Shown: piece by piece, positions 1 through 4,617 of the stretch | How the letters are laid out: each line of letters begins with the position of its first letter | Position numbering within the stretch: position 1 is the stretch's first letter | Virus record (IMG/VR): IMGVR_UViG_2681813274_000008 | DNA from: a virus | Lineage: Duplodnaviria; Heunggongvirae; Uroviricota; Caudoviricetes | Length of the DNA stretch: 4,617 nucleotides | Reading direction: 5' to 3' (one strand) | Translations under genes and position numbers: made by a program | Notes under the pieces: generated by a model | Seen by the model: only the letters and a program-made list of their open reading frames with translations | Databases searched by the model: none | What the model was told of the DNA's origin: nothing

Positions 1-37
1 CATCGGGCATTATCTGAACATAAAACACTATCAATAA
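1..37 (+). CDS. insB: IS1 transposase InsB (InsAB') C-terminal fragment; 5' part outside window
   Basis: Codons 2-34 read I-G-H-Y-L-N-I-K-H-Y-Q followed by TAA at 35-37, consistent with the known C-terminus of IS1 InsB. Recognised from memory, not searched. Confidence 0.75.
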   Translation, partial: IGHYLNIKHYQ

Positions 38-52
38 GTTGGAGTCATTACC
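1..52 (+). mobile_element. IS1 insertion sequence, right-end fragment (terminal 52 bp including the right inverted repeat); body of the element lies left of the window
   Basis: Reverse complement of 1-52 is GGTAATGACTCCAACTTATTGATAGTGTTTTATGTTCAGATAATGCCCGATG, which matches the IS1 right terminus as I recall it (IRR GGTAATGACTCCAACTTATTGAT). The same 28-mer recurs inverted at 4590-4617. Homology ends sharply at 52/53. Confidence 0.88.
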
Positions 53-646
53 TGCGCCCCCCTGTGGAATGTAGTAATAACGTTCCATAACGCGGGCACG
101 CCATATTTCCAGATTTTCAATATCTTCACCGTCTGTAATGGTGTCAGCGTACCCTGTGGACGGCAGACCACTGACGGGTGTTCCCAGTTGCATGGCAATA
201 CCATCATCCGTATTCCCCGCCGATCCCGGTTCGTCTGCCACAACAGGCACCCGGAGAAGACCATCGGCTGCGGTCACCGTCGCCGTCGTGGTAAAGGTCA
301 CCTGATTATCACGCTGGATCTGCGTTCCCGCTGGCAATACCGGCGTCCCCTCTACGCCATCCCAGCGCACAAATCCCCGGGCTGCCACCGCTTCTTTTCG
401 CGGGCAGCGTTTGATTCTGGCGTGCCGGTACAGCCAGTCTTCATCACACACGTCCGGTAACAGATTTCTGGCAAGATAATCGATATACCCGTACAACGTG
501 TGTACGGCTGCAGCCTGTACACGGGCATACACTTCCGCATCCATACGACGAAGCAGCGTATCCTGCTCAAAGCGGGTTAATAAATCGCTCCGGATCATAG
601 AAATAAGTTGCGGGAGGCCGGGGCGATAAAACTGACTGTCAGCCAT
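53..646 (-). pseudogene. Baseplate J-like protein (Mu gp47 / P2 gpJ family), 5' portion only; truncated by IS1 at 52/53
   Basis: ATG at 646-644 with GGAG (complement of 655-658) 8 nt upstream. Open frame of 198 codons (MADSQFYRPGLPQ...ITDGEDIENLEIWRARVMERYYYIPQGGA) runs straight into IS1 sequence. Position directly after the gp46-like gene matches Mu gene order, and the E-x-D...R-x-R...GG motif region resembles baseplate J proteins. The ORF track omits it because no stop occurs inside the window. Confidence 0.65.
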
Positions 647-1049
647 TCAGTTCACTCCAGATATCATCAAAAATAATGTTGTGAATATTGCCGTCACGCT
701 GGTAAATGGTAATGGCAAGTGCCAGCGAGTCTGTCCCGGTCCGGACAGCGTTAATATCAAGACGGGAAGCAACACCATCCTCCACCATCCACGCCAGCGC
801 CTCACGGACATAATCTCTGGCAAGCTGCGGGGTTTTATTTGTCAGCTTGCTGCGTCGCAACAGATACAAACGCGACCCCGTGCGATCATTCTGAACCGCA
901 GGCCAGGTATCCCCCCACCATCCAAATATCCGTGGTGCATCATCACGCCCGGCACGCCGCCATGTAAAAAGCGAAATAATCACAGCACGCGTCAGAAGGT
1001 CGATCGAAGCCCCGGTCGACACGGGTCGCCCGTTAACATTAATCATCAT
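639..1049 (-). CDS. Mu gp46-like baseplate protein (GP46 family)
   Basis: 136-aa ORF; size, position between the gp45-like and gp47-like genes, and motifs (FGWWGD, GSRLYLLRRSKL) fit the phage GP46 family. Its TGA stop overlaps the gp47 start in an ATGGCTGA arrangement. Confidence 0.75.
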   Translation of the reverse strand: MMINVNGRPVSTGASIDLLTRAVIISLFTWRRAGRDDAPRIFGWWGDTWPAVQNDRTGSRLYLLRRSKLTNKTPQLARDYVREALAWMVEDGVASRLDINAVRTGTDSLALAITIYQRDGNIHNIIFDDIWSELNG

Positions 1050-1054
1050 GATTT

Positions 1055-1588
1055 TCAGCCCATCGGTTGATCCGGCGTGTCAGTGATCCCGCCACCATCA
1101 CCATTTTCGGTATGTTTGTGGGCATTGTAGGCCTGCCGCATTTGCTGCATGCTGAGTCCGCCACTGTCGCAATTGTCAGTAATATCGGCGGTGGATTCGA
1201 CTGGCATTTCAAAGCGCGCTTTAGGCGCGTTTTTAAAAATTATGGCCTTCCCGGCCCCGTCCACCACAATACCGGAACGGGTCAGGACAACGGACTGTCC
1301 CAGATCGTCATAAAGCGCCACTTCCCCACGTTTCAGTCCTTTCAGCCGGTAACGTCTGTCAGCCACGACCACAACCACACCATGAGAACGATCGCCCGCC
1401 GGAAATAAAGCAACGCCCTCAGCACCGTTCTGTGCGGCAGATGTAAAACCATAAGGTTCAAGGTGCTCAACGTGTTGTTTCTGATCTCCGGCTATCATTT
1501 TCAACCCTACAGACTGACACTTTCTGGCGGAATCCACCGCCGTGATGACAGCCCGGGAAATCAGATTACGAAGAGAAAACCCGTTCAT
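1055..1588 (-). CDS. Baseplate spike / baseplate assembly protein V (Mu gp45-like)
   Basis: 177-aa ORF; central region PYGFTSAAQNGAEGVALFPAGDRSHGVVVVVADRRYRLKGLKRGEVALYDDLGQSVVLTRSGIVVDG is typical of the gpV/gp45 OB-fold spike family. GGAGG (complement of 1596-1600) lies 7 nt upstream of the ATG at 1588-1586. Confidence 0.85.
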   Translation of the reverse strand: MNGFSLRNLISRAVITAVDSARKCQSVGLKMIAGDQKQHVEHLEPYGFTSAAQNGAEGVALFPAGDRSHGVVVVVADRRYRLKGLKRGEVALYDDLGQSVVLTRSGIVVDGAGKAIIFKNAPKARFEMPVESTADITDNCDSGGLSMQQMRQAYNAHKHTENGDGGGITDTPDQPMG

Positions 1589-2654
1589 CAGAAATCCTCC
1601 TCAACATTTTTTTCTTCCTGGCGGTAACAGGCTCGGGGAGATAAGCATCTGCCGGGCCAACCCGTAATTCAGTCGTCGTGCCCCGGTCGTCCTGGTTATA
1701 GGTAACTTCTGCGATCACCAGTTCATCATTATCAAAATTATTCAGCGGGTCGAAAACGATGACAGATAACCCCGGACGCCATAACGCGCCACTGCCCTGC
1801 CGCCAGCCCTGAACCGTATATGTTGTCTCACGGGTAAGCGCAGCCCGTTGGCGCGCTTCAAATTCACAACGGGCCTTACAGGTTGCTGTCGTTGCTGTGC
1901 CTGACTGCTGAATCAACAAAGGGCGATAACGGGTCACGCCACTGTCCTGAATGGTCTGACGTATTGCGGCAATGGTGGCCTCACCAAAATCATCGTCGTT
2001 GCCCGGGCGCTGCCCACTGACCTGATATTCAGAAAACCGCTCTCTGATGCTTCTTTCCGTGTCACAGGAAAGAATATTCTCTCCCAGCACCAGCACCAGC
2101 ACCAGCGCCGTCGCCGCTTTACCTGTTCCGGGTTTTCCCAGAACCAGTCGCCCGCATTCATCGTCATAAGCCAGCGTCTGAACCTGCCCCAGTAACCGGT
2201 TAAGACAATCGGCAACGGTTTCGCCGTGTTCCGGCTGGGCATCAATCACCGCTGTCTGCGGCACGCCAGCATCAACAACGGTGATGCCAAATGGCGCAGC
2301 CAGTTCACTGACTATTCTGAGCAGGTTTTTTCCGCTCTGCTGGAGTGGCAAAGCAGAGCAGTCAACCAGATCGGCTGTTTTGCTTCGCCCGACAATTCCC
2401 ATGCTGACGCTGCTGGCGTCATAACGAAGCGGTAGTGCCTCCACATATCCGGTGAGCACAGGCTCATCCCCGATAAGCACTTCAACCAGCTCACCATTTT
2501 TTATCCGGGGTTGATAATCCCGGCTTCCGGGCCAGCGGGTGGTAATGGCAACATTAAAATCCCGGGCAATACGGTTAATGCCCGCACTGATACGGACGGA
2601 TGTCCAGCCGCCCCATTCGCGACCGGAAACCCGAAGTAAAACGGTATCATTCAT
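1566..2654 (-). CDS. Baseplate hub protein (Mu gp44 / gene P; P2 gpD late control D family)
   Basis: 362-aa ORF; length and C-terminal region (WRPGLSVIVFDPLNNFDNDELVIAEVTYNQDDRGTTTELRVGP) fit the gpD/Mu P family. Start ATG overlaps the N gene stop (ATGA at 2651-2654); its 3' end overlaps the gp45 start by 23 nt. Confidence 0.85.
   Translation of the reverse strand: MNDTVLLRVSGREWGGWTSVRISAGINRIARDFNVAITTRWPGSRDYQPRIKNGELVEVLIGDEPVLTGYVEALPLRYDASSVSMGIVGRSKTADLVDCSALPLQQSGKNLLRIVSELAAPFGITVVDAGVPQTAVIDAQPEHGETVADCLNRLLGQVQTLAYDDECGRLVLGKPGTGKAATALVLVLVLGENILSCDTERSIRERFSEYQVSGQRPGNDDDFGEATIAAIRQTIQDSGVTRYRPLLIQQSGTATTATCKARCEFEARQRAALTRETTYTVQGWRQGSGALWRPGLSVIVFDPLNNFDNDELVIAEVTYNQDDRGTTTELRVGPADAYLPEPVTARKKKMLRRISDERVFSS
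2085..2106. repeat. Hexanucleotide tandem repeat (CAGCAC) x3.7 within the baseplate hub gene
   Basis: Direct reading: cagcac cagcac cagcac cagc. On the coding (minus) strand it encodes A-L-V-L-V-L-V-L. Confidence 0.9.
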
Positions 2655-4060
2655 CTGACGGGTACCCTTAATGCCCTGACCGGAACAAAGCCCGGATGAG
2701 AGATGGCATTTCGATCCAGGATATCAGTTTCACGGGACGCATCGTCGTACCATGACGCAGCCAGAACAAGCGCAGGCAGAACTTCCGCTGGCGTTCGCTC
2801 TGCGGTTTCCTCCGTCTGAACCAGACGCGCCTGAATATCCCGGTTCAGTTCTGTACGTAATGACGTCAGCTGAAAAAACAGCCTGTCATCCGCCGTACGC
2901 CTGAGCTCCTGTTCAATCGCCGCGTTCAGCGATTTGCGTATGATGGTGAGATTTTCCCGCGTGGGTGGTTGCGCTCTCTCATCCTGTCCTGTGCTGGCTG
3001 CCACGCTGTCAAGTGCCGGATGAGAAACGTGAATAATATCGGACTGACGTTCAGTGGAACCACCAACAGCCACAACCGCCTGCTGATTTTTCACCAGGCT
3101 TCCGGGTTGTGGCAGTGAAGTGACCGCCCTTGTGGCTTCGCTGATTGCCGTCGTCCGGATGACAGCAGCCACAAGGTTTGTCTGCTGTTTTTGCCTGATA
3201 ACCGATGCGGAATCTGTGGGCCACACCGCACGCGGTGCCAGTCCTGGGTCCAGCGTAATGCCGGACATTGTCGTTATGGACTGCACCAGATCCTGTGTGT
3301 TATCCACCAGCCGGGTTCCGGCCCGCCAGGTATCCTGCAACGTATGCACAAAATCACTGGCAACCGACGGCGGCATCAGAATGACGGATAAATCGCCCTG
3401 CAGTAGTCTCGCTCCGGCAGAAACAGCCGAATTAACCATTTTGAAAGCTGTCTGAACGGTTCCCAGCATATCGGTCGTCCGGGCAATAACATCGTTCTGA
3501 ATAAANNNNNNNNNNNNNNNNNNNNNNNNNNNNNNNNNGAGATCAAAATCGCCGAACATGTCTTCAATCAACTCATCCAGGAATACGGACGACTCCTCCA
3601 GTTTTCTGGCGGTTGCAGCTCCGGCGACCGGAAATGACAGTTCCCCGCTCTCAACAAACTGAAATGAAACCCGGCACATACGGCCTTCAGTGCCGGAGTG
3701 AGAAACGGTCACCTGCCCGTCAATACAGCCCTGCATTTCACCGAACTGCGGATGGATCAGCGTCCCCGGCCCGGCGGTTTCAATCGCTGTAATCAGCCTG
3801 TCGCGCTGCTCTGCGTAATCATCACCAACGAGATACGCATTAATCGTCAGCCGTCGCGTGGCACGCCCGAGATCTTCCGTGTACGGTTTGTCACGGTTTG
3901 GGTATTCATGGACCTGAACGCGGCGTCCGAACGAACCCTCGTCGCTCTCCACCGAAAACGGAACGCCACGAAATGAAGCGTCGTAAAGATTATCGCGCCA
4001 ATTGATACCTGAAGATGCAGAAAAGAGTGAAGAAAGAGAAGGTAAAGAAGGTAAGTCCAT
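2651..4060 (-). CDS. DNA circulation protein N (Mu gp43-like; DNA_circ_N N-terminal domain)
   Basis: 469-aa ORF; N-terminal region WRDNLYDASFRGVPFSVES...GRRVQVHEYPNRDKPYTEDLGRATRRLTINAYLVGDDY...GPGTLIHPQFG matches the conserved DNA circulation N-terminal domain. Contains a 32-nt N gap (3507-3538) that happens to keep the frame. GGAG (complement of 4066-4069) precedes the ATG at 4060-4058. Confidence 0.85.
   Translation of the reverse strand: MDLPSLPSLSSLFSASSGINWRDNLYDASFRGVPFSVESDEGSFGRRVQVHEYPNRDKPYTEDLGRATRRLTINAYLVGDDYAEQRDRLITAIETAGPGTLIHPQFGEMQGCIDGQVTVSHSGTEGRMCRVSFQFVESGELSFPVAGAATARKLEESSVFLDELIEDMFGDFDLXXXXXXXXXXXFIQNDVIARTTDMLGTVQTAFKMVNSAVSAGARLLQGDLSVILMPPSVASDFVHTLQDTWRAGTRLVDNTQDLVQSITTMSGITLDPGLAPRAVWPTDSASVIRQKQQTNLVAAVIRTTAISEATRAVTSLPQPGSLVKNQQAVVAVGGSTERQSDIIHVSHPALDSVAASTGQDERAQPPTRENLTIIRKSLNAAIEQELRRTADDRLFFQLTSLRTELNRDIQARLVQTEETAERTPAEVLPALVLAASWYDDASRETDILDRNAISHPGFVPVRALRVPVR
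3507..3538. other. Assembly gap (32 N) inside the N gene
   Basis: Run of n characters; the flanking reading frame is continuous across it. Confidence 0.95.
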
Positions 4061-4065
4061 ACTGT

Positions 4066-4069
4066 CTCC
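4066..4069 (-). promoter_or_regulatory. Shine-Dalgarno (GGAG) for the N gene
   Basis: Complement of CTCC at 4066-4069, 5 nt upstream of the ATG at 4060-4058. Confidence 0.5.
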
Positions 4070-4073
4070 ACTA

Positions 4074-4098
4074 TAAAAAAACCGCCAATTTCTGGCGG
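4074..4098 (-). terminator. Rho-independent terminator (minus strand) downstream of the AT-rich ORF
   Basis: Stem CCGCCA (4082-4087) / TGGCGG (4093-4098) with a 5-nt loop; on the minus strand the hairpin is followed by a run of 7 U (complement of A-run 4074-4080). Lies 9 nt after the TAA (4107-4109) of the upstream ORF. Confidence 0.55.
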
Positions 4099-4106
4099 CT
4101 TATATA

Positions 4107-4589
4107 TTAATCATCATTAATATCTTTCATATTCAATTTGCAATTTTCGTAGGTCACTCCCGACTCGCCATTAACATTAACTCCAGCTCTGATATTCCCG
4201 TTTTCTTTTACATCTACAAAAAACTGGCCTCTTGGCATCTTGAACGCAAATGTAAAACCAACAGTATCTGAATCAAAATCATCATCTTTATATATTGGGA
4301 TCAAAAATGTCATCGTCGCTGGTGATGCATTGTTTGCAAAATCAAATACACCTATACTTTTGCCGAATTCNNNNNNNNNNNNNNNNNNNNNNNNNNNNNN
4401 NNNNNNNNNNNNNNNNNNNNNNNNNNNNNNNNNNNNNNNNNNNNNNNNNNNNNNNNNNNNNNNNNNNNNNNNNNNNNNNNNNNNNNNNNNNNNNNNNNNN
4501 NNNNNNNNNNNNNNNNNNNNNNNNNNNNNNNNNNNNNNNNNAATCCATCTGTATCCAAGTCAACGTCATTATCTGCAGATGTTTTAACG
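4107..4589 (-). CDS. Hypothetical protein, AT-rich ORF of unknown function; interrupted by a 171-nt N gap (4371-4541); 5' end unresolved, possibly truncated by IS1
   Basis: Minus-strand frame open from the gap edge (4370) to TAA at 4107-4109 (...EFGKSIGVFDFANNASPATMTFLIPIYKDDDFDSDTVGFTFAFKMPRGQFFVDVKENGNIRAGVNVNGESGVTYENCKLNMKDINDD). A second open stretch 4542-4589 (VKTSADNDVDLDTDG) continues without a start codon into IS1. AT-rich third codon positions and a terminator immediately downstream support coding. No family recognised. Confidence 0.4.
4371..4541. other. Assembly gap (171 N) inside the AT-rich ORF region
   Basis: Run of n characters; true length and content unknown. Confidence 0.95.
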
Positions 4590-4617
4590 GGTAATGACTC
4601 CAACTTATTGATAGTGT
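4590..4617 (-). mobile_element. IS1 insertion sequence, right-end (IRR) fragment in inverted orientation; body lies right of the window
   Basis: 4590-4617 GGTAATGACTCCAACTTATTGATAGTGT is the exact reverse complement of 25-52 and matches the IS1 IRR terminus. Flanking base 4589 differs from the base flanking the left copy. Confidence 0.85.

Follow-up and report, generated by a model that had tools for sequence, protein, structure and literature searches.

How did a stretch of tailed-phage DNA come to begin and end in the same insertion sequence, IS1, with the two ends in opposite orientations? The window, by which we mean the whole stretch of 4,617 nucleotides analyzed here, carries the following features at its two ends.

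1-52, + strand: last 52 bp of an IS1 in standard orientation (100% match to annotated IS1A/IS1B)
2-37, + strand: end of insB, translated as the InsB C terminus IGHYLNIKHYQ and a stop
30-52, + strand: right terminal inverted repeat (IRR) of the left IS1
4590-4617, - strand: 28 bp at the IRR end of a further IS1, which has the opposite orientation (perfect reverse complement of 25-52)

Of 5,426 complete E. coli genomes, 4,959 contained sequence matching positions 1 to 52 at 100% identity, at approximately 71,000 places in total, and the matches were annotated "IS1-like element IS1A/IS1B family transposase," in agreement with an earlier note that had read this end as IS1. A repeat search of the whole window paired positions 25 to 52 with 4590 to 4617 as an inverted repeat of 28 nt that was 100% complementary with arms 4,537 nt apart, and the exact reverse complementarity claimed for the two ends was thereby confirmed. 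No other inverted repeat in the window came close in length, the runner-up being 20 nt long at 85%, and the chance expectation for a perfect 28-nt inverted pair in 4.6 kb is approximately 1.5e-10 ((4617^2/2)/4^28). On the inward side the repeat is blocked, as base 53 is T whereas base 4589 is G, whose complement is C, such that similarity does stop abruptly at 52/53 and 4589/4590 as had been proposed. On the outward side it is bounded by the window end. The depth of IS1 sequence is unequal at the two window ends (52 versus 28 bp), whereas equal depths would be expected of a simple break in a fixed-k de Bruijn assembly.

Complete copies of both elements were read from 16 distinct finished chromosomes among the matches listed by two exact-protein look-ups, with 31 further similar places lying outside this sample. 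The non-N bases of the window were 100% identical to 14 of the 16. Both IS1 copies were complete (approximately 768 bp), inverted, and directed with IRR inward in all 16 chromosomes inspected, as the earlier note had predicted for the pair, and wherever the read-out was clean, the two copies were identical to each other. The full copy is 768 bp long, has imperfect 23-bp terminal inverted repeats matching at 18 of 23 positions, and encodes insA and, in the -1 frame, insB', with an A6C slippery site (AAAAAAC) at nucleotide 307. Pfam searches of the called products returned InsA, HTH_Tnp_IS1, and DDE_Tnp_IS1 (PF03811, PF12759, and PF03400). The identity of the ends, the approximately 768-bp element, insA/insB' with their domains, and 9-bp target duplications all indicate IS1, the full-element characters having been read from the identical chromosomes, as no more than 52 and 28 bp of the elements lie in the window. 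Two of the chromosomes, CP066810 and JAENSM01, are named as Shigella sonnei in PMC8549364, and CP110404 is so named in PMC11125565; a species is thus given in papers for only 3 of the 16, and the remaining 13 were assigned from sequence identity.

If the two copies had arrived separately, each should be flanked by its own 9-bp duplication, and the comparison of 9-mers called for in the earlier note was performed on these chromosomes. The inner copies of the duplications lie in the window as follows.

53-61: inner copy of the left IS1 target-site duplication, TGCGCCCCC, 9 bp (both IS1 flanks in 16 chromosomes)
4581-4589: inner copy of the right IS1 target-site duplication, GTTTTAACG, 9 bp (both IS1 flanks in 16 chromosomes)

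Its outcome was decisive: both 9-mers, the very ones named in that note, recurred past the far end of their own IS1. The left IS1 (IS1b) had GGGGGCGCA, which is the TGCGCCCCC site written on the locus strand, at both sides, and the right IS1 (IS1a) had CGTTAAAAC, the GTTTTAACG site on the locus strand, at both sides, in each case in 16 of 16 chromosomes inspected. The outermost 9-mers of the two-IS1 unit therefore differ (CGTTAAAAC versus GGGGGCGCA). Moreover, two uninterrupted E. coli prophages, L001 and L002, contain the empty sites: each 9-mer is present once, and the sequence beside it is identical to that on the outer sides of the IS1 copies in S. sonnei. As each IS1 has its own 9-bp duplication and the uninterrupted relatives carry single copies, we conclude that the locus arose by two independent simple IS1 insertions and not by composite transposition.

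Between the two IS1 ends the window contains the following features, all on the - strand.

53-646, - strand: 5' fragment of a baseplate J/gp47-family gene, 198 of 360 codons, interrupted by the left IS1 (aligns collinearly with L001 5513-6595, where the gene is intact)
639-1049, - strand: intact GP46-family baseplate gene, 136 aa (PF07409, E = 4.5e-33)
1055-1588, - strand: intact Mu gp45/baseplate assembly protein V gene, 177 aa (PF06890, E = 2.1e-26)
1566-2654, - strand: gpP/gp44-like baseplate hub gene, 362 aa (four GpP/Gp44 Pfam domains)
2651-4060, - strand: DNA circularization protein (Mu gp43-like) gene, holding a run of 33 N (PF07157, E = 3e-36)
4079-4101, - strand: terminator-like hairpin and T-run, downstream of the moron gene
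4107-4589, - strand: 3' part of a low-GC, lipoprotein-like moron gene of 160 aa, cut by the right IS1 and holding a run of 171 N (intact at L001 10030-10512)

In place of the runs of N (33 at 3506-3538 and 171 at 4371-4541), the identical chromosomes have 15 and 70 bases, and their DNA circularization protein is 463 aa long. Because 33 and 171 N replace 15 and 70 bases, the interior is 4,418 bp long rather than 4,537 bp; the latter figure, given earlier as the enclosed length, holds as a distance within the window and is inflated as a real length. The DNA_circ_N, GpP/Gp44 hub, Gp45, GP46, and Baseplate_J domains of a Mu-type gp43-gp47 module were all present and in order, and together with synteny to the phage phiP27 they substantiate the earlier description of the interior as a phage baseplate segment. 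The module is not fully intact, as IS1 interrupts J/gp47 after its codon 198: Baseplate_J (PF04865) was found on the truncated product, and PF26078 and PF26079 were found on the other half, past the IS1. The hub gene contains an in-frame hexanucleotide tandem repeat at 2084-2106, and its last residues are altered, relative to L001 and phiP27, by a 1-nt deletion in an A-run. The moron gene lies between the tape-measure and DNA circularization genes; its 160-aa product matched PHROG family phrog_5586, a family of unknown function (E = 2e-88), and gave no match in a Pfam search. The interior as a whole was collinear with two uninterrupted E. coli prophages at 98.8% and 97.3% identity. We conclude that the interior is a tail-baseplate module in which a gene at either edge is interrupted by IS1.

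Taken together, the data make it very probable that the window reflects two separate IS1 insertions in an S. sonnei prophage combined with an assembly break at IS1. The window would be a short-read contig, or part of one, from an S. sonnei chromosome, and the locus is 4.4 kb of the tail-baseplate module (Mu-type gp43-gp47) of a defective phiP27-like prophage adjoining ssrA/smpB. Two separate transposition events each left the 9-bp duplication typical of the IS1 transposase (InsAB'), one splitting baseplate J/gp47 and the other splitting the low-GC lipoprotein-like moron, and the inverted, IRR-inward layout of the two copies is happenstance. With a very large number of identical IS1 copies in the genome, a short-read assembler would halt within some tens of bases of entering each copy and thereby produce a terminal inverted repeat. 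As expected where short-read assemblies break at IS1, the gpP protein was found mostly on contigs of 2 to 5 kb (1,636 of 1,699 data blocks); the count for a second protein was 470 of 624. The claim that the contig ends in IS1 through collapse of the repeat is thus most likely right. On the other side stand the unequal IS1 depths at the window ends and the two runs of N; a scan of the genome_contigs collection for the exact left junction (47 nt) gave 0 hits, which shows that the window was not drawn from that collection. We infer that the window ends were caused by such a break, and any order and date assigned to the two insertions would likewise be inferred.

The best-surviving alternative is that recombination between the identical inverted IS1 copies flips the block at appreciable frequency. 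The copies, each 768 bp long and inverted relative to each other, show 100% identity at a distance of only 4.4 kb, and IS-mediated inversions are frequent in Shigella, the branches of which carry 103 of 114 reconstructed inversions (PMC8072062). The possibility of a flip, raised in the earlier note, is therefore mechanistically sound, but the ancestral orientation was found throughout: all 16 finished chromosomes inspected read outer TMP flank, IS1, moron end, J end, IS1, and outer J flank. The inverted orientation was seen in 0 of these 16, which were drawn from the matches listed and are consensus assemblies, blind to minority subpopulations. Moreover, both split genes are already dead whichever way the block lies, such that no evident effect would be expected of a flip, and we consider frequent inversion very unlikely. 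Slightly less likely still is that the IS1 pair is a switch operated by recombination, or a composite element of the Tn1681 kind that can still move, and that it flips or moves the 4.4-kb block in a minor fraction of S. sonnei cells, invisibly to consensus assemblies and with a selectable consequence; if true, the selectable effect might be, for example, altered gp43-gp46 expression from IS1-borne or flanking promoters.

IS1 forms composite transposons both as direct copies, in Tn9, and as inverted copies, which in Tn1681 surround a heat-stable enterotoxin gene. An inverted IS1 pair and the 4.4-kb baseplate block might accordingly have moved in jointly, as in Tn1681, and the architecture fits, with two identical inverted IS1 copies around a short segment. 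Each IS1, however, has its own matching duplication, and the outermost CGTTAAAAC and GGGGGCGCA are unlike. In addition, the uninterrupted prophages are collinear with the interior and with the outer flank on each side, which indicates that the interior has stayed in its native context throughout, and each split gene continues directly beyond its IS1. Among 72,556 plasmids, only weak matches (74 to 78%) to unrelated phage baseplate genes were found and the segment was on none, and for either inner IS1 junction no place covering at least 80% of a 240-nt synthetic query was found in the 5,426 complete E. coli genomes. The plasmid search thus gave no sign of mobilization, and the insertions are not shared with the sequenced E. 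coli. Thus, of what defines a composite transposon, bracketing by IS copies was observed, and a common outer target duplication and multiple contexts with foreign cargo were not. The composite-transposon-like description holds for the bracketing and fails for transposition as a unit, and we regard joint transposition as exceedingly improbable. Equally negligible is an assembly artefact, in which a chimeric or hairpin terminal repeat would have no flanking IS1 copies: the window does end inside a repeat of unequal length at its two ends and contains two runs of N, but both junctions recur without a base difference in independent finished long-read chromosomes, together with complete IS1 copies and duplications, and a hairpin or chimeric origin was rejected.

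Two separate insertions followed by an assembly break thus remain the preferred reading, and their significance is small and mostly a matter of bookkeeping, with no bearing on an open biological question. IS1 expansion in Shigella is well documented, and the two-insertion locus is genuine but unremarkable and can already be found in published genomes. It provides a textbook case of Shigella IS1 expansion inactivating prophage genes and splitting short-read assemblies into small IS-ended contigs. Should it be established how the two junctions are distributed among S. sonnei lineages, they could be used as lineage markers, and so could the polymorphic hexanucleotide repeat in the hub gene.

Comparison with known systems is consistent with this reading. 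The IS1 copies resemble the IS1A/IS1B-type elements of E. coli and Shigella in length, terminal inverted repeats, insA/insB' frameshift, and 9-bp duplications, with no notable difference. Like the present pair, Tn9 and Tn1681 have two IS1 copies around a few kilobases, and those of Tn1681 are inverted, as here; unlike them, the present pair lacks a common outer target duplication, its cargo lies in a native prophage, and no second location was found. The Stx2e phage phiP27 (NC_003356), whose tail/baseplate module has genes of the Mu gp43-gp48 type, is 96.4% identical at the nucleotide level over window positions 53 to 4064 and shares the order of the genes (DNA circularization, hub, gp45/V, gp46, and J), but phiP27 has no IS1, and its tape-measure and circularization genes are not separated by the 160-aa low-GC moron. 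Compared to phiP27, the prophage in S. sonnei is degraded: its head region has been replaced by IS4- and IS3-family elements, and the remainder is likewise riddled with IS elements. S. sonnei chromosomes carry a median of 243 to 299 IS sites, 42 to 59% of which are IS1, and as in the IS1 expansion and IS-driven pseudogenization described for this species (Hawkey et al. 2020, PMC7373316), the two IS1 sites here inactivate prophage genes.

An inverted-repeat search indicated that positions 25-52 and 4590-4617 of the window form a perfect 28-nt inverted repeat, for which our own arithmetic gives a chance expectation of about 1.5e-10 and which is far longer than the runner-up pair (20 nt at 85%). 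The match ends at 52/53 and 4589/4590, its outward extent being bounded by the window ends. Of 5,426 complete E. coli genomes, 4,959 contained 100% matches to positions 1-52, about 71,000 in all, every place among the matches listed falling under IS1-like IS1A/IS1B family transposase annotation, and 2-37 translates to IGHYLNIKHYQ*, the C-terminal end of InsB. Thus, the window opens with the final 52 bp of an IS1 in standard orientation and, given the perfect inverted repeat, closes with the same IRR end inverted. We note that the reach into IS1 is unequal, 52 bp on the left versus 28 bp on the right. Breakage of a de Bruijn graph at fixed k would leave overhangs of equal length; end trimming, or excision of the window from a slightly different record, may account for the difference.

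The interior genes all lie on the minus strand:

Minus strand, DNA-circularization protein, Mu gp43-like, baseplate module
1566-2654, minus strand, gpP/gp44-like hub, baseplate module
Minus strand, gp45/V, baseplate module
Minus strand, GP46, baseplate module
Minus strand, baseplate J/gp47, first 198 of 360 codons, interrupted by the left IS1
4107-4589, minus strand, 160-aa gene, intact at 10030-10512 of L001, an uninterrupted E. coli prophage

By exact-protein look-up, the 362-aa hub protein occurred in 1,699 data blocks, and these included at least 41 finished chromosomes of about 4.8 Mb. All non-N window bases, including the IS1 ends, were identical in seven of the eight chromosomes first compared. 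Neither junction was found in the 5,426 complete E. coli genomes, and the left junction had no match in the GTDB species-representative collection. Sixteen distinct chromosomes were inspected, the name Shigella sonnei being confirmed from papers for three of these records (CP110404 [PMC11125565]; CP066810 and JAENSM01 [PMC8549364]). Both elements were complete IS1 copies in all 16, inverted with IRR ends inward, 768 bp in length (767-770 bp where long-read homopolymer errors occur), and mutually identical wherever both were 768 bp. The full copy has terminal repeats matching at 18/23 positions, insA, insB' in the -1 frame, and an AAAAAAC slippery site, and its products contain the Pfam domains InsA, HTH_Tnp_IS1, and DDE_Tnp_IS1. 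The identification of IS1 in the earlier note, made from the window alone, was therefore upheld.

The earlier note had also proposed that target-site duplications would distinguish independent insertions from composite transposition, and the test was decisive. In 16 of 16 chromosomes, CGTTAAAAC bordered the right IS1 on either side and GGGGGCGCA likewise bordered the left IS1; in the window these two 9-mers appear reverse-complemented, as GTTTTAACG at 4581-4589 and TGCGCCCCC at 53-61, respectively. A single copy of each 9-mer was present at the uninterrupted sites of L001 (98.8% identity) and a second E. coli prophage, L002 (97.3%), with flanks identical to the S. sonnei outer flanks. As each IS1 has its own 9-bp duplication and the empty sites have single copies, we conclude that two independent simple IS1 insertions occurred in a resident prophage.

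The two IS1 copies, as identical 768-bp inverted repeats separated by 4.4 kb, offer RecA a valid substrate for inverting the intervening segment, and Shigella genomes often undergo IS-mediated inversion (PMC8072062). The ancestral order was nonetheless retained in all 16 chromosomes, orientation being scored on assembled chromosomes such that minority forms within cultures could escape. A composite transposon, in which the inverted IS1 pair and enclosed segment moved as a unit, fits the IS1-segment-IS1 architecture but fails in its defining features: the outermost 9-mers differ, the cargo is in its native context, and a second location was not found, with the segment on none of 72,556 plasmids and neither junction in the 5,426 E. 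coli genomes. Composite transposition as the origin is ruled out by the separate target duplications and the single 9-mers in L001 and L002. An assembly artefact is excluded, as finished genomes repeat both junctions base for base.

We infer that the window ends are assembly breaks at the two independently inserted IS1 copies, where short-read assembly would break and leave each end inside IS1. The hub protein's longest contig measured 2-5 kb in 1,636 of 1,699 blocks, and that carrying the 160-aa gene fragment was 2-5 kb in 470 of 624, the size expected were short-read assemblers to stop at both copies. Median counts of IS sites per S. sonnei chromosome are 243-299, with IS1 responsible for 42-59% of insertions (PMC7373316).

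Two N runs stand for fewer real bases in otherwise identical chromosomes: 33 N at 3506-3538 for 15 bases (GTCCGGTATTCCCGC) and 171 N at 4371-4541 for a 70-mer. Masking or gap filling was not length-preserving, and the apparent interior is 4537 bp versus a true 4418 bp. An in-frame hexanucleotide repeat, (CCAGCA/CACCAG)n, at 2084-2106 of the hub gene encodes (LV)n. The repeat varies between S. sonnei chromosomes (interior of 4406, 4412, 4418, or 4424 bp; hub protein of 358, 360, 362, or 364 aa) and could serve as a VNTR typing locus. On the coding minus strand, 1605-1611 is A7 in the window versus A8 in L001, a 1-nt deletion that changes the hub protein end from NVEEDF* to MLRRISDERVFSS* and causes the hub ORF to overlap gp45 by 23 nt. 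At 4037-4054, in the 5'-terminal part of the DNA-circularization gene, 9 bp are exactly duplicated in tandem (AGAAGGTAA twice), encoding a repeated LPSLPSL motif at the protein N-terminus.

The rest of the J gene, with Baseplate_J_M and Baseplate_J_C, lies directly beyond the left IS1. The right IS1 interrupts the 160-aa gene (37% GC) at about codon 34, and the gene is inactivated in S. sonnei. This gene, which separates the tape-measure gene from the DNA-circularization gene, encodes a lipobox-like N-terminus (…LTSC…) and has its own terminator-like hairpin at 4101-4079; it belongs to the function-unknown family phrog_5586 and had no match in a Pfam search. In S. sonnei (loci L003, 1800-2955 and 18100-18462, and L011, 1566-4596), the prophage adjoins ssrA (tmRNA)/smpB, and IS4-family and IS3-family elements lie beside a head-protease fragment (Peptidase_S78) at the expected head-gene position, and this replacement of head genes indicates that the whole prophage is a remnant. 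The nearest uninterrupted prophage (98.8%; L001, NZ_CP065613.1, "E. coli" FDAARGOS_944) adjoins a frameshifted ipaHe T3SS effector gene (L001 1-1137), which suggests a Shigella/EIEC-type strain and a prophage type that carries ipaH.

Among sequenced phages, the Stx2e phage phiP27 comes nearest, with 96.4% identity over 53-4064. Like L001, phiP27 has two LV units fewer in the hub repeat than the window. Its tape-measure and circularization genes are adjacent without the 160-aa gene. Being missing from phiP27, the 160-aa gene behaves as a moron and appears to be one carried by the prophage, perhaps encoding a surface or exclusion lipoprotein. The exact configuration is already in many deposited S. 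sonnei genomes, and every element is of a known kind: IS1, a phiP27/Mu-type baseplate module, IS-driven Shigella prophage decay, and repeat-induced contig breaks. We conclude that the finding is real but ordinary and already known.
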